A DNA stretch of 64,000 nucleotides from Escherichia coli (GTDB lineage: Bacteria > Pseudomonadota > Gammaproteobacteria > Enterobacterales > Enterobacteriaceae): the NCBI RefSeq assembly GCF_003991155.1, contig NZ_CP031293.1. One strand, written 5' to 3'. The position numbers and the translations under genes were made by a program. Below the pieces are notes generated by a model. It saw only the letters and a program-made list of their open reading frames with translations. It ran no database searches and was not told the DNA's origin. Positions 33,383 to 63,278 of the stretch are shown here, piece after piece (the stretch's first letter is position 1; every line of letters begins with the position of its first letter).

Positions 33383-33458
33383 TGGTGGGTCGTGCAGGAT
33401 TCGAACCTGCGACCAATTGATTAAAAGTCAACTGCTCTACCAACTGAGCTAACGACCC
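33383..33458 (-). tRNA. lysQ: tRNA-Lys (anticodon UUU), 76 nt including CCA
   Basis: Reverse complement equals GGGTCGTTAGCTCAGTTGGTAGAGCAGTTGACTTTTAATCAATTGGTCGCAGGTTCGAATCCTGCACGACCCACCA; gene name by order in K-12 operon. Confidence 0.95.
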
Positions 33459-33491
33459 CTTGCGGGATTATGCTGCTTTAATCATTCAGGA

Positions 33492-33567
33492 TGGTGGGTC
33501 GTGCAGGATTCGAACCTGCGACCAATTGATTAAAAGTCAACTGCTCTACCAACTGAGCTAACGACCC
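33492..33567 (-). tRNA. lysZ: tRNA-Lys (UUU)
   Basis: Identical 76-nt copy. Confidence 0.95.
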
Positions 33568-33615
33568 ATACGGGTGTTACCTGAAAGATTTCTACTCGGA
33601 ACCAATCTTTAAAAT

Positions 33616-33691
33616 TGGTGGGTCGTGCAGGATTCGAACCTGCGACCAATTGATTAAAAGTCAACTGCTCTACCAACTGAGCTAACGACCC
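33616..33691 (-). tRNA. lysY: tRNA-Lys (UUU)
   Basis: Identical 76-nt copy. Confidence 0.95.
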
Positions 33692-33694
33692 GAG

Positions 33695-33770
33695 TGGTGG
33701 GTGATGACGGGATCGAACCGCCGACCCCCTCCTTGTAAGGGAGGTGCTCTCCCAGCTGAGCTAATCACCC
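33695..33770 (-). tRNA. valZ: tRNA-Val (anticodon UAC)
   Basis: Reverse complement GGGTGATTAGCTCAGCTGGGAGAGCACCTCCCTTACAAGGAGGGGGTCGGCGGTTCGATCCCGTCATCACCCACCA. Confidence 0.95.
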
Positions 33771-33821
33771 GATACTGCGCTGGATACTACAAACTACTTC
33801 CACCGAACCCACCGTCATTAG

Positions 33822-33897
33822 TGGTGGGTCGTGCAGGATTCGAACCTGCGACCAATTGATTAAAAGTCAACTGCTCTACCAACTGAGCTAACGACCC
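33822..33897 (-). tRNA. lysW: tRNA-Lys (UUU)
   Basis: Identical 76-nt copy. Confidence 0.95.
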
Positions 33898-33899
33898 GG

Positions 33900-33975
33900 T
33901 GGTGGGTGATGACGGGATCGAACCGCCGACCCCCTCCTTGTAAGGGAGGTGCTCTCCCAGCTGAGCTAATCACCC
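33900..33975 (-). tRNA. valT: tRNA-Val (UAC)
   Basis: Identical to other Val copy. Confidence 0.95.
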
Positions 33976-34010
33976 GATACTACGCTGGATACTACAACTA
34001 ACTACGTTAG

Positions 34011-34086
34011 TGGTGGGTCGTGCAGGATTCGAACCTGCGACCAATTGATTAAAAGTCAACTGCTCTACCAACTGAGCTAACGACCC
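34011..34086 (-). tRNA. lysT: tRNA-Lys (UUU), first gene of operon
   Basis: Identical 76-nt copy. Confidence 0.95.
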
Positions 34087-34250: not shown

Positions 34251-35042
34251 TTACATCGCGTTCAGACGTTTTTGCGCCTGTTTAGCGCCATCAGTACCAG
34301 GGTATTTACTGATAACCTGCTGGTATACGGCTTTCGCTTTTGCGGTGTCACCTTTGTCCTGCATGATGACGCCGACTTTAAACATCGCATCTGCAGCCTT
34401 CGGTGACTTCGGATAGTTTTTCACTACCGAAGCAAAATAATACGCCGCATCATCTTTTTTACCCTTGTTGTAGTTTAACTGACCCAGCCAATAATTGGCG
34501 TTTGGCAGGTAAGTTGAATCAGGGTAATTCTTGATGAAATTCTGAAATGCCACCATTGCGTCATCCTGGCGGGATTTATCCTGCACCAGCGCAATAGCTG
34601 CATTGTAATCCGTGTTTGCATCACCGCTTTTCACCGGCGCGCCAGCATTCGCAGTACCAGCATCAGCTGTCGGCGTCGTTGATGCCGCCGCACCGCTTTG
34701 ATCGCCGCTGGTTGATTGCGCCGTTGCACCACCGCTGCTGAGGCTATCGATCTGCAACAGGATCTGCTTTTGCCGCTCCACGACCTGATTCAGTTGATAC
34801 TGATTTTCCTGAATCTGACCACGCAGGGAATCAATATCGGATTGATTATCAGAGAGTTGTTGCTGGAGTTGGGTTAAAAGCTGGCTGTGAGCATTAGAAA
34901 TACGCTCAAGTTGAGTGACGCGGTCTTCGACCGAGCCTGAGCCGACACTACTGATTGGTGCCTGAGCAAAAGCGGCCCAGGGGGCCGCTATACCAACCAG
35001 TAACGACAGACTCAATAGTTGATGTCTGAAGTTACTGCTCAT
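34251..35042 (-). CDS. cpoB: Cell-division coordinator with TPR repeats (YbgF)
   Basis: 263 aa; signal peptide, coiled-coil Q-rich N-domain, C-terminal TPR. Confidence 0.92.
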   Translation of the reverse strand: MSSNFRHQLLSLSLLVGIAAPWAAFAQAPISSVGSGSVEDRVTQLERISNAHSQLLTQLQQQLSDNQSDIDSLRGQIQENQYQLNQVVERQKQILLQIDSLSSGGATAQSTSGDQSGAAASTTPTADAGTANAGAPVKSGDANTDYNAAIALVQDKSRQDDAMVAFQNFIKNYPDSTYLPNANYWLGQLNYNKGKKDDAAYYFASVVKNYPKSPKAADAMFKVGVIMQDKGDTAKAKAVYQQVISKYPGTDGAKQAQKRLNAM

Positions 35043-35051
35043 GCAATTCTC

Positions 35052-35597
<546 letters not shown>

Positions 35598-37032: not shown

Positions 37033-38298
37033 TTACGGTTTGAAGTCCAATGGCGCGTTTTTGAACACTTCATATACTGCCTGGCTTGGTGGTTTCGGGA
37101 TCTTCGCAAGTTTAGCTGCTGCCAACGCAGCCTGACAAAGTGCGGGATCGCCACCTTCAGGTTTGATATCCAGTAACATACCATCGGGTGCCAGTTTTAT
37201 GCGCAGCGTACAGGTTTTGCCTGCATAGGACGATGCGTCATAGAACTTACTTTCGATAGCAGATTTAATCTGCCCGGCATAGTTATTGATATCGGCCCCT
37301 GATGCGCCATTGTTTTTAGTATTACCACTCCCGGCTGGCGAAGCATTGTTCCCTTTCGCCCCTCCCCCCGTTTTCGGTGCATTCTTACCAGAGCTTAGCT
37401 CACCGAAAATATCATCTGCCTCTGCGGCAGCTTTTGCTGCAGCGGCTTTTTCAGCTGCTGCTTTTGCCGCTGCCGCTTTTTTGTCTGCGGCGGCTTTTTC
37501 TGCCGCTGCTTTCTTATCAGCTGCTGCCTTTTCAGCAGCCGCTTTTTCTGCTGCTTTTTTGTCGGCTGCCGCTTTCTCTGCTGCCGCTTTCTTATCAGCT
37601 GCAGCCTTTTCAGCAGCCGCTTTCTTCTCAGCTTCTGCTTTGGCTTTTTCAGCAGCTTCAGTTGCCGCTTTCTTTCTTGCTTCAGCTGCAGCTGCTTCTG
37701 CCGCTTCCGCTTTCTTCTTCAGTGCCGCCGCGGCTGCCTCGGCTTTTTTCTGCGCTTCGGCTGCGGCTTTGGCGGCTTCTGCTTCTGCTTTTTTCTTCGC
37801 GTCTGCAGCCGCTTTCTTCGCTGCTTCTTCCGCAGCTTTTGCATCCGCTTCAGCCTTCGCTTTAGCATCTGCCGCCGCTTTCGCTGCCGCTTCTTCCGCT
37901 TGCTTCTGCTTTAACTCGGCCTGTTTTGCGGCTTCTTCAGCCTGCTTTTTCTGTTCCTGAGCCGCTAACCGCTCTTTCTCAAGTTGCTTCAGGCGTTCCT
38001 GTTCAGCCGCTTGTTTCTCACGCAGTTCTTCAGCAGCCTGCTGTTCCTTCATCTTGCGCTGCTCATCAGAACGCTTCGCGCTTGATTCCTGGCTTTGCAT
38101 GCGTTTGTACTGCTCAACTACCGCACCTGAATCAACCATGACAGCGTCGATGGACGAACCACCGCCGCCTCCGGCTGAAGCTTCTATATTCTCATCGAAC
38201 GAACTCCAGATCAGCGCCGCAAATAAGATGACATGCAGCACTGCTGAAATAATTATCGCCCGTTTGAGCTTGTCGTTTTGTTCGGTTGCCTTTGACAC
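37033..38298 (-). CDS. tolA: Tol-Pal system protein TolA
   Basis: 421 aa; N-terminal TM anchor, long Ala/Lys/Glu-rich helical repeat domain, C-terminal globular domain. Confidence 0.93.
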   Translation of the reverse strand: MSKATEQNDKLKRAIIISAVLHVILFAALIWSSFDENIEASAGGGGGSSIDAVMVDSGAVVEQYKRMQSQESSAKRSDEQRKMKEQQAAEELREKQAAEQERLKQLEKERLAAQEQKKQAEEAAKQAELKQKQAEEAAAKAAADAKAKAEADAKAAEEAAKKAAADAKKKAEAEAAKAAAEAQKKAEAAAAALKKKAEAAEAAAAEARKKAATEAAEKAKAEAEKKAAAEKAAADKKAAAEKAAADKKAAEKAAAEKAAADKKAAAEKAAADKKAAAAKAAAEKAAAAKAAAEADDIFGELSSGKNAPKTGGGAKGNNASPAGSGNTKNNGASGADINNYAGQIKSAIESKFYDASSYAGKTCTLRIKLAPDGMLLDIKPEGGDPALCQAALAAAKLAKIPKPPSQAVYEVFKNAPLDFKP

Positions 38299-43987: not shown

Positions 43988-44932
43988 ATGAGTCCTGATA
44001 ATATCGGTTCGGCTGTCAATCGCTTCTCAGGTTGGCCATCTAATGATCCTCTAAAAACAGATAACGAATCAATGACATCACCCGTGACTGTGCAGGTAAT
44101 AAAGATGATTGCCGCCATCCTTGACCCATATCGGATAGTCGTTGGAATCGATACACTTTATACAACGCAGCGCGAAACATTTACCTCAGAGAGTCAACAG
44201 CTCATTGAATCAGCATTGCAAACACTTCATGTGATAAATTTAAATAACCTGGAAACAAATCTCGATGAGGACGGTCACTATCTGGCTTTTGGATATAACG
44301 TTGACACTCCTGACAGAATAACCGTTTCTGCTTATAATGAAAAAAAGCCTGGCTGCTATGGCCAATGTCTTTTAATACAGGATGACGAAACAGACTTATT
44401 TAACCTGATAAAAGTTAAAATTTTTGAAGCCAGGCATAATTATGTCGCTCAATTGATGAGCGATCCGGAATTTATGTTCAAATTTAGTTATAGCGCTCAA
44501 CAAAATAGATTAGAACCTCATCTTCTGGTTCCCACTTATTTCCCTCTAAAAACAAACGAACCGGTTACGCAAGAGGATGTACTGTTACTTTATCGTTTCT
44601 TTAAAATGGATGGTGATTTTAATATATTAACATCAGATGAATACATGAGTATCATGACACCTCTGATGAAGTGTGAGCGCAGCATCCACGACCACAACAG
44701 GTATGTGACGGGCAAAGATACCCTTCTTCTGGACTATCCTCCTTCTGGTAACCAGATATATTTCCATATTTTTCCTGACGAATCAGCAACACTAGTCCTT
44801 TATTTTTCAAACAATGACATTGAATGTTTCGTCTTTGAAAGAGATATTCCGAGCCAGTATCGCTTTTTCAAAATGTTTACCAATCTGGCACTGGTTATTG
44901 ATCAGTTAACCGATGCCAATCAAATACTTTAA
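43988..44932 (+). CDS. Hypothetical protein (314 aa), AT-rich, no recognised family
   Basis: ATG with gagg RBS about 9 nt upstream; contains internal YRFFKM repeat; low-GC codon usage. Confidence 0.6.
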   Translation: MSPDNIGSAVNRFSGWPSNDPLKTDNESMTSPVTVQVIKMIAAILDPYRIVVGIDTLYTTQRETFTSESQQLIESALQTLHVINLNNLETNLDEDGHYLAFGYNVDTPDRITVSAYNEKKPGCYGQCLLIQDDETDLFNLIKVKIFEARHNYVAQLMSDPEFMFKFSYSAQQNRLEPHLLVPTYFPLKTNEPVTQEDVLLLYRFFKMDGDFNILTSDEYMSIMTPLMKCERSIHDHNRYVTGKDTLLLDYPPSGNQIYFHIFPDESATLVLYFSNNDIECFVFERDIPSQYRFFKMFTNLALVIDQLTDANQIL

Positions 44933-45012
44933 TTTTTATATATTCCCTGTGGCAAATATTGCTAAACAATGCCCGGGGATTAATTTTTATTACTCACGGA
45001 AAGATTTAAATA

Positions 45013-45435
45013 ATGATCCCATCTCAAATCTCTTTCAACACCCTTCCTGTCAATGCAACATACGCTTCAGAGACAACAGTTGACACACAAAAATTCTCTG
45101 ACATCCTCTACTCAGCGGGGTGTTCCCTAAAGGATCTGGCTTATCTGAGCAGATGTCTGGCATCAATACATCCGACTATCGCCAAAAACATTTATGAAAC
45201 AGAAAATCTCAGCGATCAAAAATTACTACATATTGATTGCCGTAGTACAAATGAAATCAAGATAAATATCTTTTTTGGTCAACAACGAGAAGGATTAATT
45301 GAAATTAATTCTGACACTGTCATTTTTTCGATATTGTCTTCATTAATTGACTCCGCCATTTCTAAATTTCAACACCAAATCCCCGTTAACGGTTCAGTTA
45401 ATCGTGAACTATTGTATGAGGATTATACTGATTAA
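45013..45435 (+). CDS. Hypothetical protein (140 aa), AT-rich, no recognised family
   Basis: ATG start; Ser/Thr/Asn-rich N-terminus, acidic C-terminus; 80 bp downstream of previous ORF. Confidence 0.55.
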   Translation: MIPSQISFNTLPVNATYASETTVDTQKFSDILYSAGCSLKDLAYLSRCLASIHPTIAKNIYETENLSDQKLLHIDCRSTNEIKINIFFGQQREGLIEINSDTVIFSILSSLIDSAISKFQHQIPVNGSVNRELLYEDYTD

Positions 45436-45981
45436 ATCCACCCAGTCGCGAAAATGGCCTGCGTTATTGCCAGAGGTAATAAAACCTTTGATTAACGTTA
45501 CTCATACTGGTAGCACCTTCATGTACCTCTCTTTTTTACGAAAAATCAAAAGAGCTAACTAAGGTCATAATTCGCATGAATCATTAACCATTTGTTATTT
45601 TCAACATTATTTTTACATTAAGCAGAGATGAATTGCAGTGAAATTCGACTTAAATTTTATGAAATGCATTTACTCATGGCTAAACCCATATCACTAAAAT
45701 GCAAATTAGAAGTAGATCACAAATACCTCAATACACCAAATCAAGTTAATTTTAAAAATTTAACATTCATGACATTAGTTGACATAACACACTGAATTAA
45801 CATGAGAATTTAACAACATACTTTAAACAATCATTTCCCGAAAGACATTTTGAAAATAGATCAATTGCAACATTACGGTCAGATAAAGACACTCCTGTGA
45901 TATTAAACCTGTGCCGTTATGAACGGCCATAAATACGACGTGTGTAACTTATTTTACTCTCTGTCTTACAAAGGATTACCC

Positions 45982-46431
45982 ATGAAGAAAGCAACACTTG
46001 TGATTGGCGTTATTGGCGCGGACTGCCATGCAGTAGGCAATAAAGTTCTGGACCGCGTTTTTAGCAACCATGGCTTCAGAGTCATTAATCTGGGCGTAAT
46101 GGTCAGCCAGGACGAATATATTGATGCGGCCATTGAAACTGGCGCTGACGCGATTGTCGTCTCCTCTATCTATGGGCATGGCGATATCGACTGTCTGGGC
46201 ATGCGCGAACGCTGCATCGAGCGTGGACTGGGGGACATCCTGCTCTATGTGGGCGGTAACCTGGTGGTCGGAAAACATGACTTCGCTGACGTGGAAACCA
46301 AATTCAAAGAGATGGGATTTGATCGCGTCTTTGCCCCAAGTCATGACTTAGAAGATGTTTGTCAGCTGATGGCACACGATATCAACCAACGTCATGACGT
46401 TGATACTCGTATTCTTGAAGAGGCAATCTGA
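45982..46431 (+). CDS. Glutamate mutase sigma (S) subunit, B12-binding
   Basis: [24 protein letters not shown]: DxHxxG cobalamin-binding motif; strong similarity to clostridial GlmS/MutS; aagga RBS; ORF track start 45919 is an extension. Confidence 0.9.
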
Positions 46432-47819
46432 TGCAAATCGTCTCTGTCGATATTGGATCGACGTGGACCAAAGCAGCCCTCTTCGCCCGGGAGGGGGATG
46501 CGTTAACGTTGGTTAACCACGTACTGACCCCAACCACCACCCATCATCTGGCGAAGGGGTTTTTCTCCAGCCTGAACCTGGTGTTAAACGTAGATAATGC
46601 CCTCCCCCTGTTTAACAACGGTGAGGTTGCATTGAAGTATTCCTCCTCTGCCAAAGGTGGGCTGGCGGTTGCCGCAATGGGATTGGTGCCTTCTATCACC
46701 CTGGAAACCGCGAAAGTAACCGCTCACTCTGCGGGGGCTAAAATTGCGCAATATTACGCCTACAAGCTGAACCGCCGTGATATCCAGGCACTGGAAGAAA
46801 CGCAGCCCGATATTCTCTTGTTCACCGGCGGCACCGACGGCGGAGAAGAAAGCTACGGCCTGAATAACGCCCGTGTGCTGGCAGAATCCAAACTCGACTG
46901 CGCCATTATTTATGCCGGAAACCGGGATATTCAGGACGAGGTGCAGGAGATCCTAGGGCATAAAGACCTGACCATCGTCGACAACGTTCTGCCCGATCTT
47001 GACCATCCGAACCCTTTAGCTGCACGCCAGGCTATCTGCGACATATTCCTTAAACGCATCGTTAAAGGGAAAGGGCTGGATGTCGTTGTTGATAAAACAG
47101 GCGAAGAACCAATGCCGACACCGTGGACAGTCTTTGAACTGGTTAAGGCAATCAGTAATGTCGATCACAGCTGGAAAGAGTTCATGCTGATCGACATGGG
47201 TGGCGCAACCACCGATGTCTATTCCGCCTGTGCCAACACGCTCTCGCCCGACACCGTTTTACACGGCGTACCGGAACCCTTCGTGAAACGGACGGTGGAA
47301 GGCGATCTGGGAATGCGCGTCTCGGCAATGGTGGTTGGTGAAAGTGCGAAAGAGTTAGTCAATGTGAATTTTGCTCAGCAACCCGCACAGCTGGACGCTT
47401 TTTATCATTACCTCCGTCATCTAGTCGCTCATCCCGACTACTTACCCGCGAATGCAGAAGAAAAATATTTCGATACCGTCCTGGCCGGACTGTGTGTGGG
47501 TTATGCCACCGAAAGACATGCGGGCACCAAAAAAGAGGTCTGCACCTGCGTCGGCAATGTCGATTTACAGATGGGACGTGACCTGACAACCGTGCGTAAA
47601 GTCGTCGGATCCGGCGGATGGCTCTCGCGTGCCAGTCAGTTCGATATGCATCACTGGTTGAAATACCGCGAGTTAAACGACGACGGTAAACGCATTCTCT
47701 TACCGACCGAATTTGAATATTACCGCGATTCCCGGGGGCTATTACCACTGCTGGCAAACGTCGCCAGAGTCGATCCGCTGGCCGCCGCGCGCACCAGTAT
47801 TCAATGCTTAACCCTATAA
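46431..47819 (+). CDS. Glutamate mutase-associated protein L (MutL/GlmL-like, putative reactivase)
   Basis: 462 aa; start overlaps S-subunit stop (TGATG); position between S and E as in Clostridium. Confidence 0.8.
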   Translation: MQIVSVDIGSTWTKAALFAREGDALTLVNHVLTPTTTHHLAKGFFSSLNLVLNVDNALPLFNNGEVALKYSSSAKGGLAVAAMGLVPSITLETAKVTAHSAGAKIAQYYAYKLNRRDIQALEETQPDILLFTGGTDGGEESYGLNNARVLAESKLDCAIIYAGNRDIQDEVQEILGHKDLTIVDNVLPDLDHPNPLAARQAICDIFLKRIVKGKGLDVVVDKTGEEPMPTPWTVFELVKAISNVDHSWKEFMLIDMGGATTDVYSACANTLSPDTVLHGVPEPFVKRTVEGDLGMRVSAMVVGESAKELVNVNFAQQPAQLDAFYHYLRHLVAHPDYLPANAEEKYFDTVLAGLCVGYATERHAGTKKEVCTCVGNVDLQMGRDLTTVRKVVGSGGWLSRASQFDMHHWLKYRELNDDGKRILLPTEFEYYRDSRGLLPLLANVARVDPLAAARTSIQCLTL

Positions 47820-47837
47820 CAATTAAGGCTGCAATCA

Positions 47838-49283
47838 ATGGAACTTCGAAATAAGAAATTAACCCATGACGAATTCATGACCGAGCGGCAACAGGTACTG
47901 AAAACCTGGGAAACCGGCAAGGATGTTGAAAACTTTGAAGATGGCGTTAAATACCAACAAACCATTCCTGAGCATAAACGCTTCTCTCTTGCCCTGCTGA
48001 AAGCAGACAAGGAAGGTAAAACTCTTAGCCAACCGCGCGCAGGCGTGGCGCTGATGGACGAACACATCGAACTACTGAAAACACTACAAGAAGAGTGCGA
48101 TCTGCTGCCGAGCACCATCGATGCATATACCCGTCTGAATCGGTACGAAGAAGCGGCTGTAGGGATTAAAAAATCCATCGAAGCCGGAACCTCTAAACTG
48201 AACGGTTTACCGGTCGTTAACCACGGCGTCGCAGCTTGCCGTCGCCTCACCGAAACTCTGCAAAAACCGCTACAGATCCGCCACGGCACGCCAGATGCGC
48301 GTCTGCTGGCTGAAATCTCGATGGCCAGCGGCTTTACCAGTTATGAAGGCGGCGGCATTTCCTACAATATTCCGTATGCCAAGCGCGTAACGCTGGAAAA
48401 ATCGATCCGCGACTGGCAGTACTGCGACCGTTTAATGGGGATGTATGAAGAACACGGGATCCGCATCAACCGCGAACCGTTTGGCCCACTAACGGGTACC
48501 CTGATCCCGCCGTTTATCTCGCACTCTATCGCGATAATCGAAGGCTTGCTGGCGCTGGAACAGGGTGTGAAATCTATCACCGTTGGTTATGGACAGGTCG
48601 GCAGCCTGACGCAGGATGTTGCGGCGATCCAGTCTCTGCGTGAACTTGCACACGAATATTTTCAGAGCTATGGCTATACCGACTATGAATTAAGTACCGT
48701 GTTTCACCAGTGGATGGGCGGCTTTCCGGAAGACGAATCGAAAGCGTTCGCTATTATCTCCTGGGGCGCAGCCGTCGCGGGGATGTCTGGTGCCACCAAA
48801 GTCATCACCAAAAGTCCGCACGAAGCCTGGGGCATCCCGACTGCCGCTGCCAACATTCAGGGGCTGAAAGCCTCCCGCCAGATGCTCAACATGGTCAACG
48901 AGCAGAAATTCCCGCCGTGCCCTGCGGTTGAACTGGAAATTGAACTGATTAAGAGCGAGGTTCGCGCGGTACTGAATAAAGTGTTCGAACTGGGTAATGG
49001 TGATATTGCGCGCGGTACGGTGCTGGCATTTGAAGCGGGCGTACTGGATGTGCCGTTTGCGCCAGCCGCCTGCAACGCGGGCAAAATTCTTCCGGTCCGT
49101 GACAACACCGGCGCGATACGCGTACTGGAAGCCGGAGCCGTTCCATTGCCAAAAGATATTCTCGACCTCCACCACGATTACGTTGCGGAACGCGCACGCT
49201 TTGAAGGACGCCAACCGACATTCCAGATGGTTGTAGATGACATCAATGCTGTATCCCACAGTAAATTAATAGGAAGACCATAA
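47838..49283 (+). CDS. Glutamate mutase epsilon (E) catalytic subunit
   Basis: MELRNKKLTHDEFMTERQQVLKTWETGKDV closely matches clostridial GlmE/MutE N-terminus; 481 aa. Confidence 0.9.
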   Translation: MELRNKKLTHDEFMTERQQVLKTWETGKDVENFEDGVKYQQTIPEHKRFSLALLKADKEGKTLSQPRAGVALMDEHIELLKTLQEECDLLPSTIDAYTRLNRYEEAAVGIKKSIEAGTSKLNGLPVVNHGVAACRRLTETLQKPLQIRHGTPDARLLAEISMASGFTSYEGGGISYNIPYAKRVTLEKSIRDWQYCDRLMGMYEEHGIRINREPFGPLTGTLIPPFISHSIAIIEGLLALEQGVKSITVGYGQVGSLTQDVAAIQSLRELAHEYFQSYGYTDYELSTVFHQWMGGFPEDESKAFAIISWGAAVAGMSGATKVITKSPHEAWGIPTAAANIQGLKASRQMLNMVNEQKFPPCPAVELEIELIKSEVRAVLNKVFELGNGDIARGTVLAFEAGVLDVPFAPAACNAGKILPVRDNTGAIRVLEAGAVPLPKDILDLHHDYVAERARFEGRQPTFQMVVDDINAVSHSKLIGRP

Positions 49284-50524
49284 TGAAAATAAAACAGGCT
49301 CTGTTCACCGCTGGCTACTCCTCATTCTATTTCGATGACCAGCAGGCGATAAAAAACGGAGCGGGTCATGACGGCTTTTTTTATACCGGGGAGCCGGTAA
49401 CACAGGGGTTTAACGCCGTTCGTCAGGCCGGGGAGTGCGTATCAGTACAGTTGATTCTGGAAAACGGCTCGGTCGCCGTAGGTGACTGTGCTGCCGTACA
49501 GTATTCCGGGGCAGGTGGTCGCGATCCACTGTTCCTCGCTGAGCACTTTATTCCGTTCCTCAACGACCATATCAAGCCATTACTGGTAGGCCGCGATGTG
49601 GATGCTTTCCTGCCGAATGCCCGTTTCTTCGACAAATTGCGTATTGACGGCAACTTGCTGCATACCGCCGTGCGCTACGGATTATCACAGGCGCTGCTTG
49701 ATGCTACCGCGCTGGCAACCGGCCGTCTGAAAACTGAAGTAGTTTGCGATGAATGGCAGTTGCCACGCGTGGCGGAATCCATTCCATTATTTGGTCAGAG
49801 CGGGGACGATCGATATATCGCCGTCGATAAGATGATCCTTAAGGGCATCGACGTGCTGCCCCATGCACTGATTAATAACGTCGAAGAGAAACTGGGCTTT
49901 AAAGGTGAAAAACTGCGCGAATATGTCCGCTGGCTGTCGGATCGTATTCTGAGCAAGCGCACCAGCGCACGCTACCACCCTACCCTGCACATCGATGTAT
50001 ACGGCACTATCGGTCTGATCTTCGATATGGATCCGCTTCGCTGTGCGCAATACATCGCCAGCCTGGAAAAAGAAGCGCAAGGCCTGCCGCTCTACATTGA
50101 AGGGCCGGTCGATGCCGGTAACAAGCCCGATCAAATTCGCCTGCTGACCGCGATTACCAAAGAGCTGACGCGCCTCGGTTCCGGCGTGAAAATTGTGGCC
50201 GATGAATGGTGTAACACCTACCAGGATATTGTTGATTTCACTGATGCCGCCAGTTGTCACATGGTGCAAATCAAAACCCCGGATCTGGGCAGTATTCACA
50301 ACATCGTCGATGCGGTTCTTTACTGCAACAGCCACAGCATGGAAGCGTACCAGGGCGGCACCTGCAATGAAACTGATGTCAGTGCCCGCACCTGTGTCCA
50401 CGTCGCCCTTGCCGCTCGCCCTATGCGTATGCTGGTAAAGCCAGGGATGGGCTTTGACGAAGGCCTCGATATCGTCTTCAACGAAATGAATCGTACTATC
50501 GCGCTGTTGCAGGCTAAGGATTAA
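49283..50524 (+). CDS. 3-methylaspartate ammonia-lyase (beta-methylaspartase)
   Basis: MKIKQALFTAGYSSFYFDDQQAIKNGAGHDGF..DCAAVQYSGAGGRDPLF matches clostridial methylaspartase; start overlaps E-subunit stop. Confidence 0.92.
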   Translation: MKIKQALFTAGYSSFYFDDQQAIKNGAGHDGFFYTGEPVTQGFNAVRQAGECVSVQLILENGSVAVGDCAAVQYSGAGGRDPLFLAEHFIPFLNDHIKPLLVGRDVDAFLPNARFFDKLRIDGNLLHTAVRYGLSQALLDATALATGRLKTEVVCDEWQLPRVAESIPLFGQSGDDRYIAVDKMILKGIDVLPHALINNVEEKLGFKGEKLREYVRWLSDRILSKRTSARYHPTLHIDVYGTIGLIFDMDPLRCAQYIASLEKEAQGLPLYIEGPVDAGNKPDQIRLLTAITKELTRLGSGVKIVADEWCNTYQDIVDFTDAASCHMVQIKTPDLGSIHNIVDAVLYCNSHSMEAYQGGTCNETDVSARTCVHVALAARPMRMLVKPGMGFDEGLDIVFNEMNRTIALLQAKD

Positions 50525-50527
50525 CAA

Positions 50528-51898
50528 ATGGCTCGTTCTTTTAAAGTCTTATCGCCAACGGCAATCCTCGGGTATGGATTCCCGGAAGAGAGCTTCCGCA
50601 AAGCGATGGCAGAATCGCCCGATCTGATCGCCGTTGATGCAGGCTCTTCCGATCCTGGCCCCCACTACCTCGGAGCGGGCAAACCGTTTACCGATCGCGC
50701 AGGGGTCAAGCGCGATCTGCGCTATATGATCACCGCAGGCGTGCAAAATAATATACCGGTGGTGATCGGAACAGCTGGCGGTTCTGGTGCCGCACCACAC
50801 CTGGAGTGGTGCCGAGAAATAATTCATGAGATTGCCCGGGAAGAGCGACTCGTGTTCTCGATGGCGCTGATCCCGGCAGACGTTGACAAAGCCATCGTCC
50901 ACCAGGCGCTGGATAACGGCAAAATCACGGCGCTGGATTTTGTCCCGCCGTTAACCCACGACGCGATTGACGAAAGTACGTATATCGTTGCGCAAATGGG
51001 CATCGAACCCTTCCAGCGGGCGCTGAAAGAAGGCGCGCAAGTGGTGCTGGGCGGGCGCGCTTACGACCCGGCCTGCTTTGCTGCGCTCCCGATCATGCAA
51101 GGCTTTGATGAAGGTCTGGCGCTGCATTGTGGGAAAATCCTTGAATGCGCGGCAATCGCCGCAACGCCCGGCTCAGGCTCTGACTGTGCGATGGGCATCA
51201 TTGATGACAACGGCTTTACGCTGAAGACATTTAATCCGAAGCGTAAATTTACCGAAACGTCAGCGGCTGCACACACACTGTATGAGAAATCCGATCCCTA
51301 CTTCCTGCCTGGACCTGGCGGCGTGTTGAACCTGAAAGGCTGCACATTTAAAGCGGTCAATGACGGCGAAGTGTACGTCAGCGGTTCTAAGCATGAAGAA
51401 ACGCCGTATGCCCTGAAACTGGAAGGTGCGCGACGGGTGGGCTTCCGCTGTCTGACCATCGCAGGAACGCGCGACCCGATCATGATCGCCGGGATCGATA
51501 AAATCATCGATGAAGTCAAAACCAGCGTTTCACGTAACCTGTCGCTCGACGATGACAGCATTCGCATCAATTTCCACCTGTACGGCAAAAACGGGGTGAT
51601 GGGCGACCATGAACCGATGCAAACTGCCGGGCATGAGCTGGGGATTGTCCTTGATGTAGTTGCACCGACCCAGGAAATTGCCAATAGCGTTTGCTCGCTG
51701 GTGCGCTCTACCATGCTGCACTACGGCTATGAAAACCGCATCGCTACCGCAGGCAATCTGGCGTTCCCGTTCTCCCCTTCTGATATCCAGGGCGGGCCGG
51801 TATACGAATTTTCCATATATCACCTGATTGAAGCCAACGACGCTCTGCGTTTTGATTTCCATATTGAACAGGTGACGCCAGAAGGAGTTCAGGCATGA
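50528..51898 (+). CDS. DUF1446-like (AtuA-like) protein of unknown function
   Basis: 456 aa; N-terminus ...VLSPTAILGYGFPEE resembles the DUF1446 family by recall; 3 nt after methylaspartase stop. Confidence 0.65.
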   Translation: MARSFKVLSPTAILGYGFPEESFRKAMAESPDLIAVDAGSSDPGPHYLGAGKPFTDRAGVKRDLRYMITAGVQNNIPVVIGTAGGSGAAPHLEWCREIIHEIAREERLVFSMALIPADVDKAIVHQALDNGKITALDFVPPLTHDAIDESTYIVAQMGIEPFQRALKEGAQVVLGGRAYDPACFAALPIMQGFDEGLALHCGKILECAAIAATPGSGSDCAMGIIDDNGFTLKTFNPKRKFTETSAAAHTLYEKSDPYFLPGPGGVLNLKGCTFKAVNDGEVYVSGSKHEETPYALKLEGARRVGFRCLTIAGTRDPIMIAGIDKIIDEVKTSVSRNLSLDDDSIRINFHLYGKNGVMGDHEPMQTAGHELGIVLDVVAPTQEIANSVCSLVRSTMLHYGYENRIATAGNLAFPFSPSDIQGGPVYEFSIYHLIEANDALRFDFHIEQVTPEGVQA

Positions 51899-52212
51899 AA
51901 CAGTCAATTGTCTCACTGGCGCAAGTCATTCGTTCGAAAAATGCCGGACCTTACGAACTGGTTTTAGATATTTTATTTAAAACGAAAGAAAACTATGAGC
52001 GAGTTAAATCATCAGGGCAATTAACCCCAGAACTGATTGCGCGCTTATATCATGTTGAACCTGACTTTATTCACCGTATTGTCTGGTTTGATCCTTCTAA
52101 CGCAGTAAAAATCGTCATGCCACGAGATATTATCTCCGGGAATGTAGGTGACAATGATGTCTATGGTGCACAGCAACATGCACCTTTATTAAATATGAGT
52201 TTCGATTTGTAA
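51895..52212 (+). CDS. DUF4387-like small protein (usual partner of DUF1446)
   Basis: 105 aa; ATG overlaps upstream stop (ATGA); family assignment by recall. Confidence 0.6.
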   Translation: MKQSIVSLAQVIRSKNAGPYELVLDILFKTKENYERVKSSGQLTPELIARLYHVEPDFIHRIVWFDPSNAVKIVMPRDIISGNVGDNDVYGAQQHAPLLNMSFDL

Positions 52213-52372
52213 AAATCCGAATACTTTTAGCCAACTGACATCCCGTCACTTATTGCAGTTCAACACTTCAGCTATTTGTAAGGTTGTAATAGCAGGTAGA
52301 TGCCTGAATCTCTATTCAGGCATCTACTTCTCCTGATTCTGATTTATCGCCGTGCACCTGATGGAGGAAAAA

Positions 52373-53653
52373 ATGAAGAAAATAAGTTTAACCACGATGA
52401 TTCTTTTGGCGCTGGTACTTGGAATGATTATCGGCGTAGTGCTCAATAACACTGCTTCACCGGAAACCGCAAAACTCTATGCGCAAGAAATATCGATATT
52501 CACGACGATTTTCTTACGACTGATAAAAATGATTATCGCTCCGTTAGTGGTCTCTACCCTGGTGGTAGGTATAGCTAAAATGGGAGATGCCAAAGCCCTT
52601 GGTCGTATTTTTTCTAAAACACTCTTTTTATTTATTTGCGCCTCATTGCTGTCAATTGCCTTAGGCTTGATAACGGTAAATTTCTTCATGCCAGGCACAG
52701 GAATTAATTTTGTTGCACACGGTGCCGAAACCACCGGAGTGGTCGCGTCAGAACCCTTTACACTAAAAGTATTTATTTCGCATGCTTTCCCCACCAGCAT
52801 TGTCGATGCCATGGCACACAATGAAATTTTGCAAATCGTGGTGTTCTCAATTTTCCTCGGCTGTAGCCTGACGGCGATTGGTGAGAAAGGCAGCGCCATC
52901 GTTCACGCCTTAGATTCGCTGGCACATGCCATGTTAAAGCTCACTGGCTACGTCATGCTCTTCGCTCCCCTGACCGTATTCGCCGCTATTTCAGCATTGA
53001 TTGCTGAACGAGGACTGGCAGTTATGGTGAGCGCCGGGATCTTTATGGGTGAATTTTATTTCACCATGTTGTTACTTTGGGTGCTGCTTATCGGTCTGGC
53101 CATCGTTTATGTCGGCCCCTGCATCAGACGCCTGACCCGTGCCCTTTCGGAACCCGCCCTGCTGGCATTTACCACATCCAGTTCTGAAGCGGCTTTTCCG
53201 GGAACGCTTGAAAAACTGGAGCAATTTGGCGTTTCCCCCAAAATTGCCAGCTTTGTCTTACCCATTGGCTACTCATTTAATCTCGTTGGATCAATGGCCT
53301 ACTGCTCCTTCGCCACAGTTTTCATCGCCCAGGCCTGCAATATCCATTTATCCATCGGTGAGCAAATCACCATGCTGTTGATCCTGATGTTGACCTCGAA
53401 AGGAATGGCTGGCGTACCACGCGCCTCAATGGTGGTTATCGCCGCCACGCTCAACCAGTTCAATATTCCGGAAGCGGGGCTGATCTTGCTGATGGGCGTT
53501 GATCCGTTCCTTGATATGGGGCGTTCCGCGACAAACGTCATGAGCAACGCAATGGGCGCTGCGATGGTGAGTCGGTGGGAAGGCGAACATTTCGGCGAGG
53601 GCTGTCGGGGTAAAGCATTAAAACCCAATGAATCGAACGTTGCTCTGCCCTGA
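52373..53653 (+). CDS. Dicarboxylate/amino acid:cation symporter (DAACS, GltP-like)
   Basis: 426 aa polytopic protein; ggagg RBS before ATG 52373; ORF track start 52352 is an extension. Confidence 0.8.
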   Translation: MKKISLTTMILLALVLGMIIGVVLNNTASPETAKLYAQEISIFTTIFLRLIKMIIAPLVVSTLVVGIAKMGDAKALGRIFSKTLFLFICASLLSIALGLITVNFFMPGTGINFVAHGAETTGVVASEPFTLKVFISHAFPTSIVDAMAHNEILQIVVFSIFLGCSLTAIGEKGSAIVHALDSLAHAMLKLTGYVMLFAPLTVFAAISALIAERGLAVMVSAGIFMGEFYFTMLLLWVLLIGLAIVYVGPCIRRLTRALSEPALLAFTTSSSEAAFPGTLEKLEQFGVSPKIASFVLPIGYSFNLVGSMAYCSFATVFIAQACNIHLSIGEQITMLLILMLTSKGMAGVPRASMVVIAATLNQFNIPEAGLILLMGVDPFLDMGRSATNVMSNAMGAAMVSRWEGEHFGEGCRGKALKPNESNVALP

Positions 53654-53760
53654 GGGGGATCTTAAGCAATCAGAAGCCAATGACTACGCATTTTTATAAG
53701 CCGGATCATGAAGTTAGACGGCAATTAAGTAAAACTAACGTTTAAGGTGAAAAGTGAAAT

Positions 53761-55413
53761 ATGTCCAAACCATTTATCTGGCAAGAACCGTTTCTACAAA
53801 ATAAAGACGGTACAGAATATACATTAATTAGCGATCAACATATTACAGTAACGGAATTAGACGGCGAAGAAGTGATAAAAATCGCTCCTGAAGCATTAAC
53901 GCTGCTTGCCCGGCAGGCATTTTATGAAGCCTCTTTTTTCTTACGTTCCGCTCATTTGCAACAGGTCGCCAGCATTCTTAACGATCCGCACGCCAGTAGT
54001 AATGATAAATACGTTGCGTTGCAGTTATTACGTAATGCTGAAGTCTCAGCAAAAGGGGTATTACCCAACTGTCAGGATACCGGCACCGCAACTATTGTTG
54101 CCAGTAAAGGGCAACAGATATGGACCGGAGGTAACGACGCTGAAGCCTTAAGCAAAGGCATTTACACCACTTTTCAGGAAAATAATCTGCGCTTTTCACA
54201 AAATGCGCCACTGGATATGTATACCGAAGTCAATACGCAAACCAATCTACCGGCGCAGATTGATATCAGCGCCGTCGCTGGTGATGAGTACCATTTTCTC
54301 TGTATTAATAAAGGGGGCGGCTCTGCCAATAAAGCCGCGCTTTATCAGGAAACCAAATCCCTATTGCAACCAGAAAAACTGACCGCATTTTTAATCGAAA
54401 AAATGAAATCGCTGGGCACCGCTGCCTGCCCGCCTTACCACATCGCCTTTGTCGTCGGAGGGCTTTCAGCCGATCAAACCTTAAAAGTTGCCAAGCTGGC
54501 CTCAACGAAATATTACGACAATTTGCCCACCAGCGGAAACGAGCAAGGACAAGCATTCCGTGATATTGAGCTGGAAAAAGTATTGCTCGAGGCCAGTCAG
54601 CAATTTGGTATTGGTGCGCAATTTGGGGGTAAATATTTCGCTCATGATATTCGCGTCATTCGTCTGCCGCGTCACGGTGGCTCTTGCCCGATAGCTATGG
54701 CGCTCTCCTGTTCTGCGGATCGCAATATCAAAGCAAAAATTAACAAGCACGGTATCTGGCTGGAAAAACTCGAACACAATCCGGGGCAATATATTCCAGC
54801 CTCACTGCGGGAAGAAAATCACGCGCAACATGTACAGCTGGATCTAAACCGTCCGTTGCGTGACGTGATGCAGGATCTCGCCAGATTACCGGTAGGCACC
54901 CGCGTGTCGTTAAGTGGTCCCATCGTAGTGGCGCGCGATATCGCCCACGCCAAAATAAAAGCGCGGCTGGATAGCGGCGAACCGATGCCGGATTACCTGA
55001 AGCATCATATTGTCTATTACGCTGGCCCGGCGAAAACACCGGAGAACATGGCCTGCGGTTCACTGGGTCCAACCACGGGCGGTCGAATGGACGGTTATGT
55101 CGATACCTTCCAGGCGGCTGGCGGCAGTCTGGTGATGTTATCGAAAGGTAACCGCAGCCAGCAGGTCACCGATGCCTGTCACAAACATGGCGGCTTCAAT
55201 CTGGGGAGTATTGGCGGTGCAGCTGCGTTACTGGCGCAAGAATATGTCAAAAGTCTGCGTTGCCTGGAATACCCGGAGCTGGGTATGGAAGCGGTGTGGA
55301 TGATGGAAGTGGAAAATTTACCCGCATTCATCCTGGTAGATGATAAAGGCAATAATTTCTTTAGTCAGTTTGAGCAGCAACACCGCTGCGCCAGTTGCCC
55401 TGCGGGACATTAA
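53761..55413 (+). CDS. fumD: Class I (Fe-S) fumarate hydratase-family enzyme, probable mesaconase
   Basis: 550 aa, FumA/FumB-like along full length; context with methylaspartase suggests mesaconate hydration; symbol follows the name used for the E. coli O157:H7 enzyme (recalled, not verified). Confidence 0.8.
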
Positions 55414-55422
55414 GGAAAATGA

Positions 55423-56025
55423 ATGGAAGCGCGAATTTCAACTGAACGGCATGTGCAGCGCCAGCAGAAATTGAAGGAACAGGTCGATACGCGCGTCGCG
55501 GCGGCGATAGAGAAAAAAGGGATTTTGATTGTTTTCACCGGCAACGGCAAAGGGAAATCCACTGCCGCGTTTGGTACTGTGACGCGCGCGGTGGGTCATG
55601 GCAAAACGGTGGGGGTTGCGCAGTACATCAAGGGGCAATGGGACAACGGCGAATACAACCTTCTCCAACCGCTGGGGGTTGAGTTTCATATTATGGGAAC
55701 CGGTTTTACCTGGGAGACACAGAACCGGCAAGCGGATATCGACGCGGCGAAAGAGGTCTGGTCGGAAAGCAAACGGATGCTGGCTGACAAGCGTTACGAC
55801 TTAGTGGTGCTTGATGAGCTGACCTATATGCTGGCTTACCATTATCTGGACACCGAAGAAGTGATCGCTTCTCTGCAAAACCGCCCGGCACAACAAAGTG
55901 TCATTGTCACCGGACGCGGTTGCCACAGTCAGATATTAAAAATGGCGGATACGGTCAGCGAAATCCGCCCCGTCAAACATGCTTTTGATAACGGCATTCA
56001 GGCGCAGCCGGGTATCGACTGGTAA
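55423..56025 (+). CDS. Cob(I)alamin adenosyltransferase (BtuR/CobA/CobO family)
   Basis: 200 aa; P-loop GNGKGKST; 9 nt downstream of the hydratase. Confidence 0.85.
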   Translation: MEARISTERHVQRQQKLKEQVDTRVAAAIEKKGILIVFTGNGKGKSTAAFGTVTRAVGHGKTVGVAQYIKGQWDNGEYNLLQPLGVEFHIMGTGFTWETQNRQADIDAAKEVWSESKRMLADKRYDLVVLDELTYMLAYHYLDTEEVIASLQNRPAQQSVIVTGRGCHSQILKMADTVSEIRPVKHAFDNGIQAQPGIDW

Positions 56026-56058
56026 TAACTGCGCCTGGCATCCCGCCAGGCGCAGGTT

Positions 56059-56964
56059 TTACATCTCCTGCGGTACGACCGATTTCGCCAGCAACCATTC
56101 ACGAAATTGCTGCAAGTGCGGTGAGTCAGACTTCTCTTCCTGCCACGTCATAATAAAACGATTACCGGTACGAATAGGCACATCACAGGGAATCACCATA
56201 TCGCCACTATCCAAATCATGTTGAATAGCGAACCGTGGTAACAGCGCCACGCCGAGATTAGAGCGCACGGCGGCAATCAGCATTGAAAGCAAATCGAAAC
56301 GTGGTCCGTTATTGACCAGCGGACTGCTAACGCCAGATAAAGCAAACCACTCTTCCCAGCCAGTAATACGGGTGCTTTGATGCAGAAGTGGTAACTCAGT
56401 AAGCAGTTCTGCCACTGACAGTTTTTGATCGGACATTGCAAGCAAACTGCCGCTGCATACCGGCAAAATCTCCTCATCAAAGAGATATTCTACTTCCGCC
56501 CAGGGCGCGCAAAAATTTTCGCGCATAATGACAGCATCGTACTCCCGATTAAGAAAATCGCCGTTATTAGCTAAAGAATGAATATTAACAATAATATCGG
56601 GATGTAACTTTGTGAATTCATGTAAATTTGGGATTAACCAGTGGGTACTAAAAGTAGGATTAACGGCAAGTTCAATAACCTGAACCGTAGGCTGCCAGGT
56701 CATAATGGTATTGGTATCGCGTTCCAGCTTATTTAATGTTTCTTTTACTATCCCCAGGTAATACTTCCCTGCATCATTAAGAAAAATGCGTTTTTTAGAG
56801 TGTGAAAATAACGGAGTACGTAAAAATTCCTCCAGCGCACTTACTTGTCTGAATACTGCACTTTGGGTTAACGCTAACTCCTCTGCCGCTCTGGTATAAC
56901 TTTCATGACGTGCGACGACCTCAAAAGTCACCAGCAGTTCCGTTTTAGGTATTTTTCCTCGCAT
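56059..56964 (-). CDS. LysR-family transcriptional regulator
   Basis: 301 aa; N-terminal HTH FEVVARHESYTRAAEELALTQSAVFRQVSALE. Confidence 0.85.
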   Translation of the reverse strand: MRGKIPKTELLVTFEVVARHESYTRAAEELALTQSAVFRQVSALEEFLRTPLFSHSKKRIFLNDAGKYYLGIVKETLNKLERDTNTIMTWQPTVQVIELAVNPTFSTHWLIPNLHEFTKLHPDIIVNIHSLANNGDFLNREYDAVIMRENFCAPWAEVEYLFDEEILPVCSGSLLAMSDQKLSVAELLTELPLLHQSTRITGWEEWFALSGVSSPLVNNGPRFDLLSMLIAAVRSNLGVALLPRFAIQHDLDSGDMVIPCDVPIRTGNRFIMTWQEEKSDSPHLQQFREWLLAKSVVPQEM

Positions 56965-57002
56965 AATGCCTTCCCTTAAAAATAGTTGAAACTATCAAAA
57001 AA

Positions 57003-57026
57003 CCATTACTTATTGCTAAGTAATGG
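57003..57026. promoter_or_regulatory. Perfect inverted repeat, candidate operator upstream of LysR gene
   Basis: ccattacttattgctaagtaatgg (10-bp arms, 4-bp spacer) 40 bp upstream of LysR start; contains T-N11-A type LysR motif. Confidence 0.4.
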
Positions 57027-57234
57027 CAACCAAAGCAGCAATCAATATTTTATAAAAATCATGTTCGATATTTATAACCTGGTAAGCCTGGCGTGACAAT
57101 TGTCTCAATCAGACAATAATAATCCGAAAAGCAAAACGCCCTTCGGATTATTATGATTCAAGTTAAGTGAAGATTATTAAATTGATAGCAATTATCATAT
57201 CTATGGATATTATGACAAACAATCAACAAAAATT

Positions 57235-58905
57235 TTATTTTTGATTTATAGCATATCCTTCTAAGAATTTTTGCGAAGCTGCAATATCTGGGGTAAAGAC
57301 CCGATCCTGGTCGACAAACGGCACGACTTTTCTGTATTCGGTAAACATTGCTTTGGTGGATTTCCCTAATGCCAGTTGTGGATCGGCCTGCAACCGTAAA
57401 TCGAGAGCCTGTGCGGAATGCATCAGTTCAATGCCATAAATCACGTTCAGATTATCGACAACCTGTTTCAATCTTCTGGCCGCGTGGTCATTATTGGCAC
57501 CGGTATCTTCTATACCTCCGGCAACCGGTTGAATATCGAAAGAAACCGGGTTAGCGAGATCGACATTTTCCGCATGCAGCGCAACAAACGGGATATGTAA
57601 TGAACCGAAGCCATGACCTTTATTACCTGCTGCCGACAGGAAGCGTGACAAACCGGTAAAGTGATCATCTTCAAGATGCAGCGAGCGGCGCATACTGTTA
57701 TGTGAAACATGCACTAACGCCACGGTCAGACGCTGGGTGGCAAGCGCAACCGGTAACGATTCGAAATTCGCCGTCGGGAAGATCCCACCGCTGATTGCCC
57801 CATCTTTAACAAAATATTGCGCGACCTGACTGGAGTCCTGATACGCTTTGTCTGCATTCAGCACGGTTGCCGGGTTGTCATCGGAACTGTTGATCTGCAC
57901 GGTAATGGTATCTTCAGCATCGCGCAACGCGCGCATTGCCTCAGAAATGGTATACACCGTCGTTCTGAACGATAACGGATCCTGCAATGCACGTTTGTCA
58001 TGCTTATGCCATAAATAAGAACCACTTAACGCATCGCGAATCTCTTTAGCGGAATCAGCCAACTGCGGGAAAGGACGCACGGCGATCGACTGCGGCAGTA
58101 CCGGCGCGACATTGCCATTCAACGCTTCCAGACTCATAGCGAAAACCACCGGGCTGACATTCAGCAACTGACGTGCCGAACGAACAGCTTCGATAGCGTA
58201 GGCTGTCCCGACGCTGTTGTTCGATAAAATCGCCAGCATATCTTTACCCTGCGGTACCAGTGGCTTAAGTCCCACTTTCGCCAGCGCGTCACCACCGCTC
58301 ATTTGCACGCCATTTACTCGGGCTTTCCATTCCCCCATCATCACCAGACCAACGTGCGAAGCGAGCATAATATCCGCTGCGCCGATACTTCCCCGCACCG
58401 GAATTAACGGTGTAACGCCGCGATTAATAAATTCGGCATACAACTCGGCAATATAAGGCTGTGCGCCGGTTTGCCCATGCAGCATGGTATTTAAACGTAA
58501 TACCATTGAAAGGCGTGCCAGATAATCCGGTAACATCGGACCAACGCCCGCAGAATGGGCGCGCAGCGCGGCAGCATTAAATTTTTTCGACGCGTCAATC
58601 ACCTCAGGCGTTAAATTTCCTTTGGCATCAAATATGGGCTGATCTTTATTTAGCCCCACGCCCACGGTTAAGCCATAAACAGGCGTACCTGAATGCGCGG
58701 CAGTCATCACCAGATCATAACTTTTTTCCATGCGCTCCATGGCGTTCGACGCGATTTTGACGCCGTTATCACCTAATGCAATTGACCAGGCCTGGTCAAT
58801 GGAAAGATGTTCGCCATCCAGCGTAATGGTTGATTTCGCCATCGCAATGGAGCAAACGCTCCAGAGCACAACGGTGACAGTGACTCTTCGTATCAATCCT
58901 TTCAT
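57235..58905 (-). CDS. Histidine/aromatic ammonia-lyase family homolog with predicted signal peptide and disrupted MIO (Ala-Ser-Gly) motif
   Basis: 556 aa; aligns with HAL throughout (e.g. GEWKARVNG.., LSNNSVGTAYA) but has GSIGAADIMLASH where HAL has GSVGASGDLAPLAH; N-terminus MKGLIRRVTVTVVLWSVCSIAMA-KS is Sec-signal-like; aagga RBS 6 nt upstream. Confidence 0.8.
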   Translation of the reverse strand: MKGLIRRVTVTVVLWSVCSIAMAKSTITLDGEHLSIDQAWSIALGDNGVKIASNAMERMEKSYDLVMTAAHSGTPVYGLTVGVGLNKDQPIFDAKGNLTPEVIDASKKFNAAALRAHSAGVGPMLPDYLARLSMVLRLNTMLHGQTGAQPYIAELYAEFINRGVTPLIPVRGSIGAADIMLASHVGLVMMGEWKARVNGVQMSGGDALAKVGLKPLVPQGKDMLAILSNNSVGTAYAIEAVRSARQLLNVSPVVFAMSLEALNGNVAPVLPQSIAVRPFPQLADSAKEIRDALSGSYLWHKHDKRALQDPLSFRTTVYTISEAMRALRDAEDTITVQINSSDDNPATVLNADKAYQDSSQVAQYFVKDGAISGGIFPTANFESLPVALATQRLTVALVHVSHNSMRRSLHLEDDHFTGLSRFLSAAGNKGHGFGSLHIPFVALHAENVDLANPVSFDIQPVAGGIEDTGANNDHAARRLKQVVDNLNVIYGIELMHSAQALDLRLQADPQLALGKSTKAMFTEYRKVVPFVDQDRVFTPDIAASQKFLEGYAINQK

Positions 58906-58955
58906 TGTGTTTCCTTATCATGATGAGTTTAACAACGGGTTACTGCGACAACGTT

Positions 58956-61704: not shown

Positions 61705-61705
61705 A

Positions 61706-63115: not shown

Positions 63116-63278
63116 GAAAAAGTCTCCTGCAAAATGAGAGGTCATTTTTTGAAACAGCAATAGAGGGTCGGGAGATATTTCTCTCGACGATGTAAAAATA
63201 TTTTTTGATAATTATTGTTATACAGGCGAATTATTCTCCGCCTGTATTAGCGCAAATATTAAATGACGGCGTTAATAT

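Follow-up and report, generated by a model that had tools for sequence, protein, structure and literature searches.

TolA is the force transducer of the Tol-Pal system, anchored in the inner membrane and coupled to the TolQR motor; the helical spacer of its domain II carries domain III across the periplasm to TolB-Pal, colicins and filamentous-phage g3p. In the 64,000-nucleotide stretch of DNA analysed here (the window), the part of tolA that encodes this spacer appears highly repetitive, which raises the question of whether it is a true repeat array, whether it changes the length of the protein from strain to strain, and what such changes might mean for the cell. Almost certainly, the region is the known variable Ala/Lys-rich repeat tract of TolA domain II, which is subject to in-frame length variation. 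The locus was already described in 2012. In itself the window, whose allele is the most frequent, K-12-type one, offers nothing new. Natural perfect expansions, a clonal stepwise series of alleles and indels in upstream degenerate units are mildly new, and a full census would be needed for them to merit reporting.

Identity of the gene and structure of the repeat tract

The open reading frame is tolA, and nothing contradicts this identification. It matches the NCBIfam TolA equivalog NF007065 with 554 bits (cut-off 213) and TIGR02794 with 308 bits (cut-off 59.45), and the encoded protein is identical to TolA of E. coli K-12 MG1655 (WP_000030637.1). The operon has the order ybgC-tolQRA-tolB-pal-cpoB; Pfam matches and a collinear RefSeq record place tolQ and tolR upstream of tolA and tolB, pal and cpoB downstream, all on the same strand. 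When the translation is read, the N-terminal helix contains S18-x3-H22-x6-L29-x3-S33, the Ser-x3-His-x6-Leu-x3-Ser motor-binding motif of TolA defined in PMC10666116. The span 37430..37960, which a sequence-only reading had singled out as a tandem Ala/Lys/Glu-rich coding repeat, corresponds to aa 113-290 and lies within domain II. The gene and its parts are as follows.

37033..38298, minus strand: tolA coding sequence, GTG start, 421 aa plus stop (ORF list, NCBIfam equivalog, RefSeq annotation)
38197..38298, minus strand: domain I, the N-terminal membrane anchor (predicted helix, aa 3-34)
37042..37326, minus strand: domain III, the C-terminal globular domain (Pfam PF06519, aa 325-419, E=2e-38, full model length)
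37420..37626, minus strand: the canonical tandem repeat tract of tolA; it has 13 imperfect units, each 15 or 18 bp long and in frame, aa 225-293
37470..37628, minus strand: higher-order 78-bp (5-unit) repeat inside the tract (Tandem Repeats Finder, exact-repeat scan)
37627..37960, minus strand: helical part of domain II (aa 113-224), Ala/Lys/Glu-rich and degenerate, weakly periodic at 12/24 bp

The tract was defined as 13 imperfect 15/18-bp units by Zhou, Michiels and Aertsen (2012, PLoS One; PMC3477136); the locus is the same one and the window allele is no different. A unit-by-unit parse of the translation identifies 37420..37626 (207 bp) as the modal '13TR' allele, with the unit pattern K1-2 A2-4 E/D/A and units of 5 or 6 residues. 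Across aa 225-293, where the type of peptide quoted by the sequence-only reading is indeed present, these read KKAAAE KAAAD KKAAAE KAAAD KKAAE KAAAE KAAAD KKAAAE KAAAD KKAAAA KAAAE KAAAA KAAAE. Tandem Repeats Finder (TRF) reports arrays of period 15, 30, 33, 45 and 78 over 37421..37641, the top-scoring of which has period 78, 2.0 copies, 88% matches and a score of 255, and weaker arrays of period 12 and 24 at 37740..37911. An exact-repeat scan found the longest exact homologies of the gene to be 20 bp (37604..37623 versus 37526..37545) and 17 bp (37586..37602 versus 37508..37524), both at an offset of 78 bp, or five units.

Ala/Lys/Glu-rich sequence can look repetitive through composition alone, with neither a true array nor any repeat-driven change in length. 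The composition of aa 113-290 is indeed extreme (52% Ala, 24% Lys, 15% Glu), and for this reason the control chosen was a codon shuffle that keeps both amino-acid and codon composition. Over the flagged region, 10 repeated k-mers were observed at k=15 against 0.9 +/- 1.6 in the shuffles, and 3 at k=18 against 0.1 +/- 0.5. This excess stems from 37421..37645, where at k=12 there were 17 against 2.6 +/- 2.6, far above the shuffled sequences, and the 78-bp repeat with its 88% matches likewise tells against a compositional origin there. On the other side, 37646..37960 is not above the codon shuffles at k>=12 (1 versus 1.9; for 15-mers, 0 versus 0.2), and this stretch is better described as a degenerate low-complexity helix than as a repeat array. 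Thus, the tandem repeats reported from sequence alone are borne out by the TRF arrays, the shuffles and the 13-unit parse, and the span proposed for them covers most of the tract, but it stops 10 bp short of the tract's end and takes in about 330 bp of degenerate sequence upstream.

The motif quoted for the repeats, GCTGCCGCTTT, is present in excess: with <=1 mismatch allowed there are 15 occurrences in the window, of which 12 lie on the + strand within 37454..37893, against an expectation for the whole window of 2.16 +/- 1.51, and 0 of 100 shuffles reached 15. It had been quoted from the + strand, while the gene lies on the minus strand.

No two units are identical in DNA, a point that also sits well with a compositional reading: among units of the window allele that encode the same peptide, 0 of 12 pairs are identical, with a mean identity of 78%. 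Since there are no identical units and no exact homology exceeds 20 bp, the tract is less unstable than a perfect array.

The same features bear on a concern raised earlier, that the array might have been collapsed or expanded during assembly of the window. Repeat arrays can collapse in short-read assemblies, but no result of the analysis supports such an artefact here. The 1266-bp gene is 100% identical to that of the complete genomes FDAARGOS_497 and 21AR0303, it encodes exactly the K-12 protein, and its length is the modal one. Moreover, a tract of only 207 bp, with unique units and a longest exact repeat of 20 bp, allows reads to be placed unambiguously. An assembly error is therefore extremely improbable, and the concern can be set aside.

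On the opposite strand, two long open reading frames cover the region.

37286..37960, plus strand: antisense shadow ORF 1, spurious, 224 aa with 100 Ala (44%), 40 Ser and 40 Phe
37377..37865, plus strand: antisense shadow ORF 2, spurious, 162 aa, Leu/Gln/Pro-rich

Apart from their lengths, there is little to suggest that these are real overlapping antisense genes, and it is hardly conceivable that they are. Neither has a Pfam match at E<=0.1, and no RefSeq annotation exists for them under the match in the listed genomes or in the collinear record; their composition is extreme, and their lengths would shift with each indel in the tolA repeats. The + strand of 37420..37960 contains only 29 A in 541 bases and a single stop in each + frame. 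As all stop codons need an A, its scarcity makes stops rare and shadow reading frames long, and the low A content is itself the expected shadow of GCN and AAR codons on the coding strand. The earlier view that the opposite-strand poly-Ala frames are spurious is upheld, and they should not be annotated as genes.

Length variation among E. coli strains and its origin

In a megablast search of 5,426 complete E. coli genomes with the window tolA, the gene was found in 5,425. An evenly spaced, rank-ordered systematic sample of the megablast ranking gave 59 full-length hits, 40 of them 1266 bp long. The remaining 19 have 12 other lengths (1185, 1215, 1221, 1233, 1251, 1275, 1278, 1281, 1290, 1299, 1311 and 1347 bp), and every difference from 1266 bp is a multiple of 3. 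A second survey used a 391-bp query across the tract, which covered 4,070 of 5,424 genomes to at least 80% in one piece; in a systematic sample, 41 of 60 genomes were at the reference length, partial alignments occurred in 16 of the 60, and only the same-length fraction was used. Both samples thus have about 68% of genomes at the reference length, set against a published 66% with 13 copies among 234 isolates, in which copy number ranged from 8 to 16 (Zhou, Vanoirbeek, Aertsen and Michiels 2012, Res Microbiol 163:316, as cited in PMC3477136). These frequencies derive from two systematic samples of about 60 genomes each, drawn from RefSeq complete genomes that over-represent clinical isolates, and the same length need not mean the same unit order.

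Fourteen alleles were fetched and aligned with that of the window. All fetched alleles, including the 12 variant lengths, are annotated as intact TolA, and lengths in the sample range from 394 to 448 aa. In the protein alignment every indel falls between aa 143 and 280, and in all 15 alleles domain I and domain III each have one and the same sequence. The length differences between strains are real, in frame and limited to domain II. The suggestion that TolA length may vary in frame between strains is confirmed by this comparison of repeat number with other alleles: a single count shared by all strains was not seen, and 13 gene lengths occur among the 59 sampled genomes. For genome annotation, strain differences in tolA length are genuine and not errors, and in allele-based typing many tolA alleles will differ by repeat indels only.

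How these variants arose can be read from their junctions. A single event, with 8-39 bp of exact junction homology, separates 10 of the 12 variant alleles from a 1266-bp allele, and the insertions of 12, 15, 24 and 33 bp are perfect tandem duplications. Two strains, 147 and 116, were rejected as single events against the 1266-bp references, leaving 45 and 27 residual mismatches, respectively. The misfit is due to the wrong reference: compared with the O157:H7-type allele, both are perfect duplications with 0 mismatches. O157:H7 RIMD 0509939, strain 116 and strain 147 share an identical tolA backbone, on which alone, and not on serotype, they were grouped; they have 11, 13 and 17 units, a series whose steps are perfect duplications of 30 bp and 60 bp, the sequences being otherwise free of mismatches. 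Across all variants, junction homology spans 8-66 bp, and perfect tandem duplications of 12, 15, 24, 30, 33 and 60 bp occur. The natural indels are repeat-mediated, by tandem duplication or by deletion between homologous units.

In several pairs the indel is the sole difference between alleles, as for MB50 and YZ_2_1 compared with K-12 tolA, and for clone D i14 compared with that of ATCC 25922. Alleles that share a backbone and differ by an indel alone mark recent events, and indels therefore accumulate faster than point substitutions in tolA. Two of these events lie outside the canonical tract.

37849..37872, minus strand: site of a 24-bp duplication in strain MB50, aa 143-150
37752..37796, minus strand: site of a 45-bp deletion in clone D i14, aa 168-182

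Both upstream indels fit an observation by Zhou et al. (PMC3477136), who noted that the sequence upstream of the tract also qualifies as less conserved repeats. They bear, too, on the idea that composition alone explains the repetitive appearance of domain II. For the canonical tract that idea is already refuted by the shuffles, by TRF and by the natural indels; the natural perfect duplications of 12-60 bp and the deletions bounded by 8-39 bp of homology speak against it in general, and even the degenerate half of the region has undergone a perfect 24-bp duplication in MB50. As an account of the flagged region it is very improbable.

With the region taken as a variable repeat tract, the best-supported route to new lengths is as follows. 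Imperfect in-frame units would misalign during recombination or replication slippage, and, the unit being made up of whole codons, helical segments would be gained or lost with the frame intact. In the laboratory, contraction occurred at 6.9e-5, was reduced to 15% of that value in recA, increased 3.3-fold in uvrD and was not affected by mutS (PMC3477136). A 5-unit deletion accounted for 193 of 199 laboratory revertants (PMC3477136), and the exact homologies at the 78-bp offset match, and would explain, this dominant class. Units 12 and 13 were never lost, for which the authors suggested a role in YbgF/CpoB binding (PMC3477136). In nature either slippage or recombination may dominate, sequence alone being compatible with both.

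The laboratory screen yielded contractions only, with expansions absent among 150 screened colonies (PMC3477136). To that work the genome sample adds natural perfect duplications of 12-60 bp, the upstream indels at aa 143-150 and 168-182, and the 448-aa allele. A wider reading, which we consider rather unlikely, is that in nature tolA length evolves more broadly, and is more prone to expansion, than the laboratory results would indicate. If events were frequent, independent and tied to host or niche (for example, to bile exposure that differs between cattle and humans), the length of tolA would be an envelope trait under natural tuning; if the wider reading were true, it would also be a fine-scale clonal marker and not a mostly fixed 13-unit spacer.

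Spacer length, envelope function and selection

The length of TolA determines how the Tol-Pal motor reaches the outer membrane. Reviews model domain II as a helical hairpin of about 220 Å that extends when energised, and cite experimental evidence for helicity (PMC8928145). Deletion of domain II abolishes TolA function; replacement by a disordered linker leaves some colicin import but loses outer-membrane stabilisation, which is complete only if domain II is helical (PMC10666116). In an AF2 single-sequence model of the 421-aa protein, residues 60-200 and 204-302 are helical, pLDDT being mostly 78-89, and the predicted helix is continuous over the repeat tract (pLDDT about 78-88). Domain II is therefore predicted to be a long alpha-helix over the tract. 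The helix break at aa 201-203 moves to aa 152-154 in the model of a 394-aa allele, the two alleles differing by a loss of 27 residues. A hairpin-turn register taken from these models was rejected, as the break shifts between alleles, confidence is low there and pTM is only 0.25-0.29.

Gain or loss of helical segments shifts the length of the spacer but leaves the anchor and the ligand-binding domain as they are, giving rise to a population of functional TolA lengths. The locus acts as an in-frame length 'rheostat' and not as an on/off phase switch. An on/off phase-variable locus is ruled out by the alleles themselves, 12 of 12 variant lengths being in frame and annotated as intact TolA.

The consequences of unit number have been studied with isogenic synthetic tolA alleles of 2 to 39 units (PMC3477136). 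The strongest copy-number-dependent phenotype is deoxycholate tolerance, which spans four orders of magnitude and increases as units are added. Plating of phage fd is 28-43% of wild type in all non-13 alleles, and survival on 0.6 M NaCl at pH 5 is highest for 6 to 13 units (PMC3477136). These phenotypes were obtained with synthetic alleles, most of which lie outside the natural range, and a single laboratory study underlies the adaptive interpretation. The relevance of TolA length to colicin and phage import, as put forward from sequence alone, holds for phage in so far as fd plating is reduced; the emphasis was misplaced, deoxycholate being the stronger effect, and colicin sensitivity of the repeat variants is absent from PMC3477136. 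As unit number has been linked in print to bile-salt tolerance and filamentous-phage susceptibility, tolA is a legitimate example of in-frame repeat 'tuning'.

It is possible, if somewhat doubtful, that the polymorphism is neutral, domain II being tolerant of many different lengths and allele frequencies being set by mutation and drift or by clonal hitch-hiking and not by tuning to bile, phages or colicins. Every synthetic allele, from 2 to 39 units, restores at least some function to a tolA deletion strain, and tolerance of SDS and osmolarity is wild type throughout (PMC3477136); a disordered or TonB-derived domain II still supports colicin import (PMC10666116); and length classes partly track lineages, as with the O157-type backbone. 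Neutrality sits less easily with the dependence of deoxycholate tolerance, fd plating and survival on NaCl at pH 5 on unit number. In addition, although the mutation rate is measurable, two independent data sets agree that about two thirds of strains have one and the same length, and this suggests that selection is stabilising. The window and K-12 genes differ by 14 synonymous and 0 non-synonymous substitutions, three of the synonymous ones inside the tract, a pattern that points to purifying selection on the repeat peptide. Together, the persistence of a single length and the purifying selection argue for stabilising selection on tolA length. As for the natural length variants, we infer that it is opposing selection, and not drift, that keeps them in the population.

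Related loci and the surrounding region

Domain II of tolA is variable in other enterobacteria, where it serves as a VNTR locus for MLVA typing: SENTR1/SE-10 in Salmonella Enteritidis, with a 45-bp unit (PMC2430564), and locus 53 in Klebsiella pneumoniae (PMC3948817). As judged from their descriptions, these resemble the E. coli tract in being in-frame domain II arrays with copy numbers that vary between isolates, but they differ in species, unit definition and sequence. TonB is a paralogous periplasm-spanning force transducer, whose own domain II, built of Glu-Pro/Lys-Pro repeats, varies widely in length between species and is partly interchangeable with that of TolA (PMC10666116, PMC12204202). 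Unlike TolA domain II, however, it forms polyproline-II and not alpha-helix, and has no sequence similarity to it.

The term 'contingency locus' has been used for tolA by Zhou et al. (PMC3477136). Phase-variable contingency loci, such as those of Neisseria and Haemophilus surface genes, are alike in that hypermutable repeats generate heritable, reversible variation in envelope proteins. Those loci, however, switch on and off by frameshift, whereas the tolA units are 15 or 18 bp and their variants stay in frame and alter spacer length only. The mechanism also differs, being mainly RecA-dependent recombination with no effect of mutS in tolA, and mismatch-repair-sensitive slippage in phase-variable loci.

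Several observations concern the rest of the window. Within the same operon, Rfam RF02782, the 'CpoB/ybgF ICR thermometer', matches 35013..35151 (-) over the full model with 142 bits against a gathering score of 51. This known cis-regulatory RNA thermometer spans the 3' end of pal and the start of cpoB. Immediately downstream of cpoB, at 33383..34086 (-), lie seven tRNA genes, five for tRNA-Lys(UUU) and two for tRNA-Val(UAC), in an order that matches the annotation of the collinear reference record.

The surrounding 64 kb is 98.3-99.5% identical to FDAARGOS_497, with small indels near the tRNA cluster, while tolA is 100% identical; this tolA allele is thus common to backgrounds that differ elsewhere. 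The LysR-family regulator gene ybhD, at 14652..15605 (+), is intact in the window, with 317 codons and no internal stop, but in FDAARGOS_497, the closest complete genome, it has an internal stop and is marked as a pseudogene. The strain that gave the window is therefore related, but not identical, to FDAARGOS_497.

Beyond cydA, at approximately 43990..64000, collinearity with FDAARGOS_497 (98.4-99.5% identity) reveals a metabolic block. It comprises genes for glutamate mutase (glmS, glmL, subunit E), methylaspartate ammonia-lyase and a class I fumarate hydratase, and cobO, which together correspond to glutamate fermentation by the mesaconate route. Next come a gene for a HAL/PAL-family ammonia-lyase and the histidine-utilisation genes hutG, hutI, a hutD-like gene and hutU. 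To our knowledge the glutamate fermentation/hut block is absent from K-12, and it is probably an accessory island.
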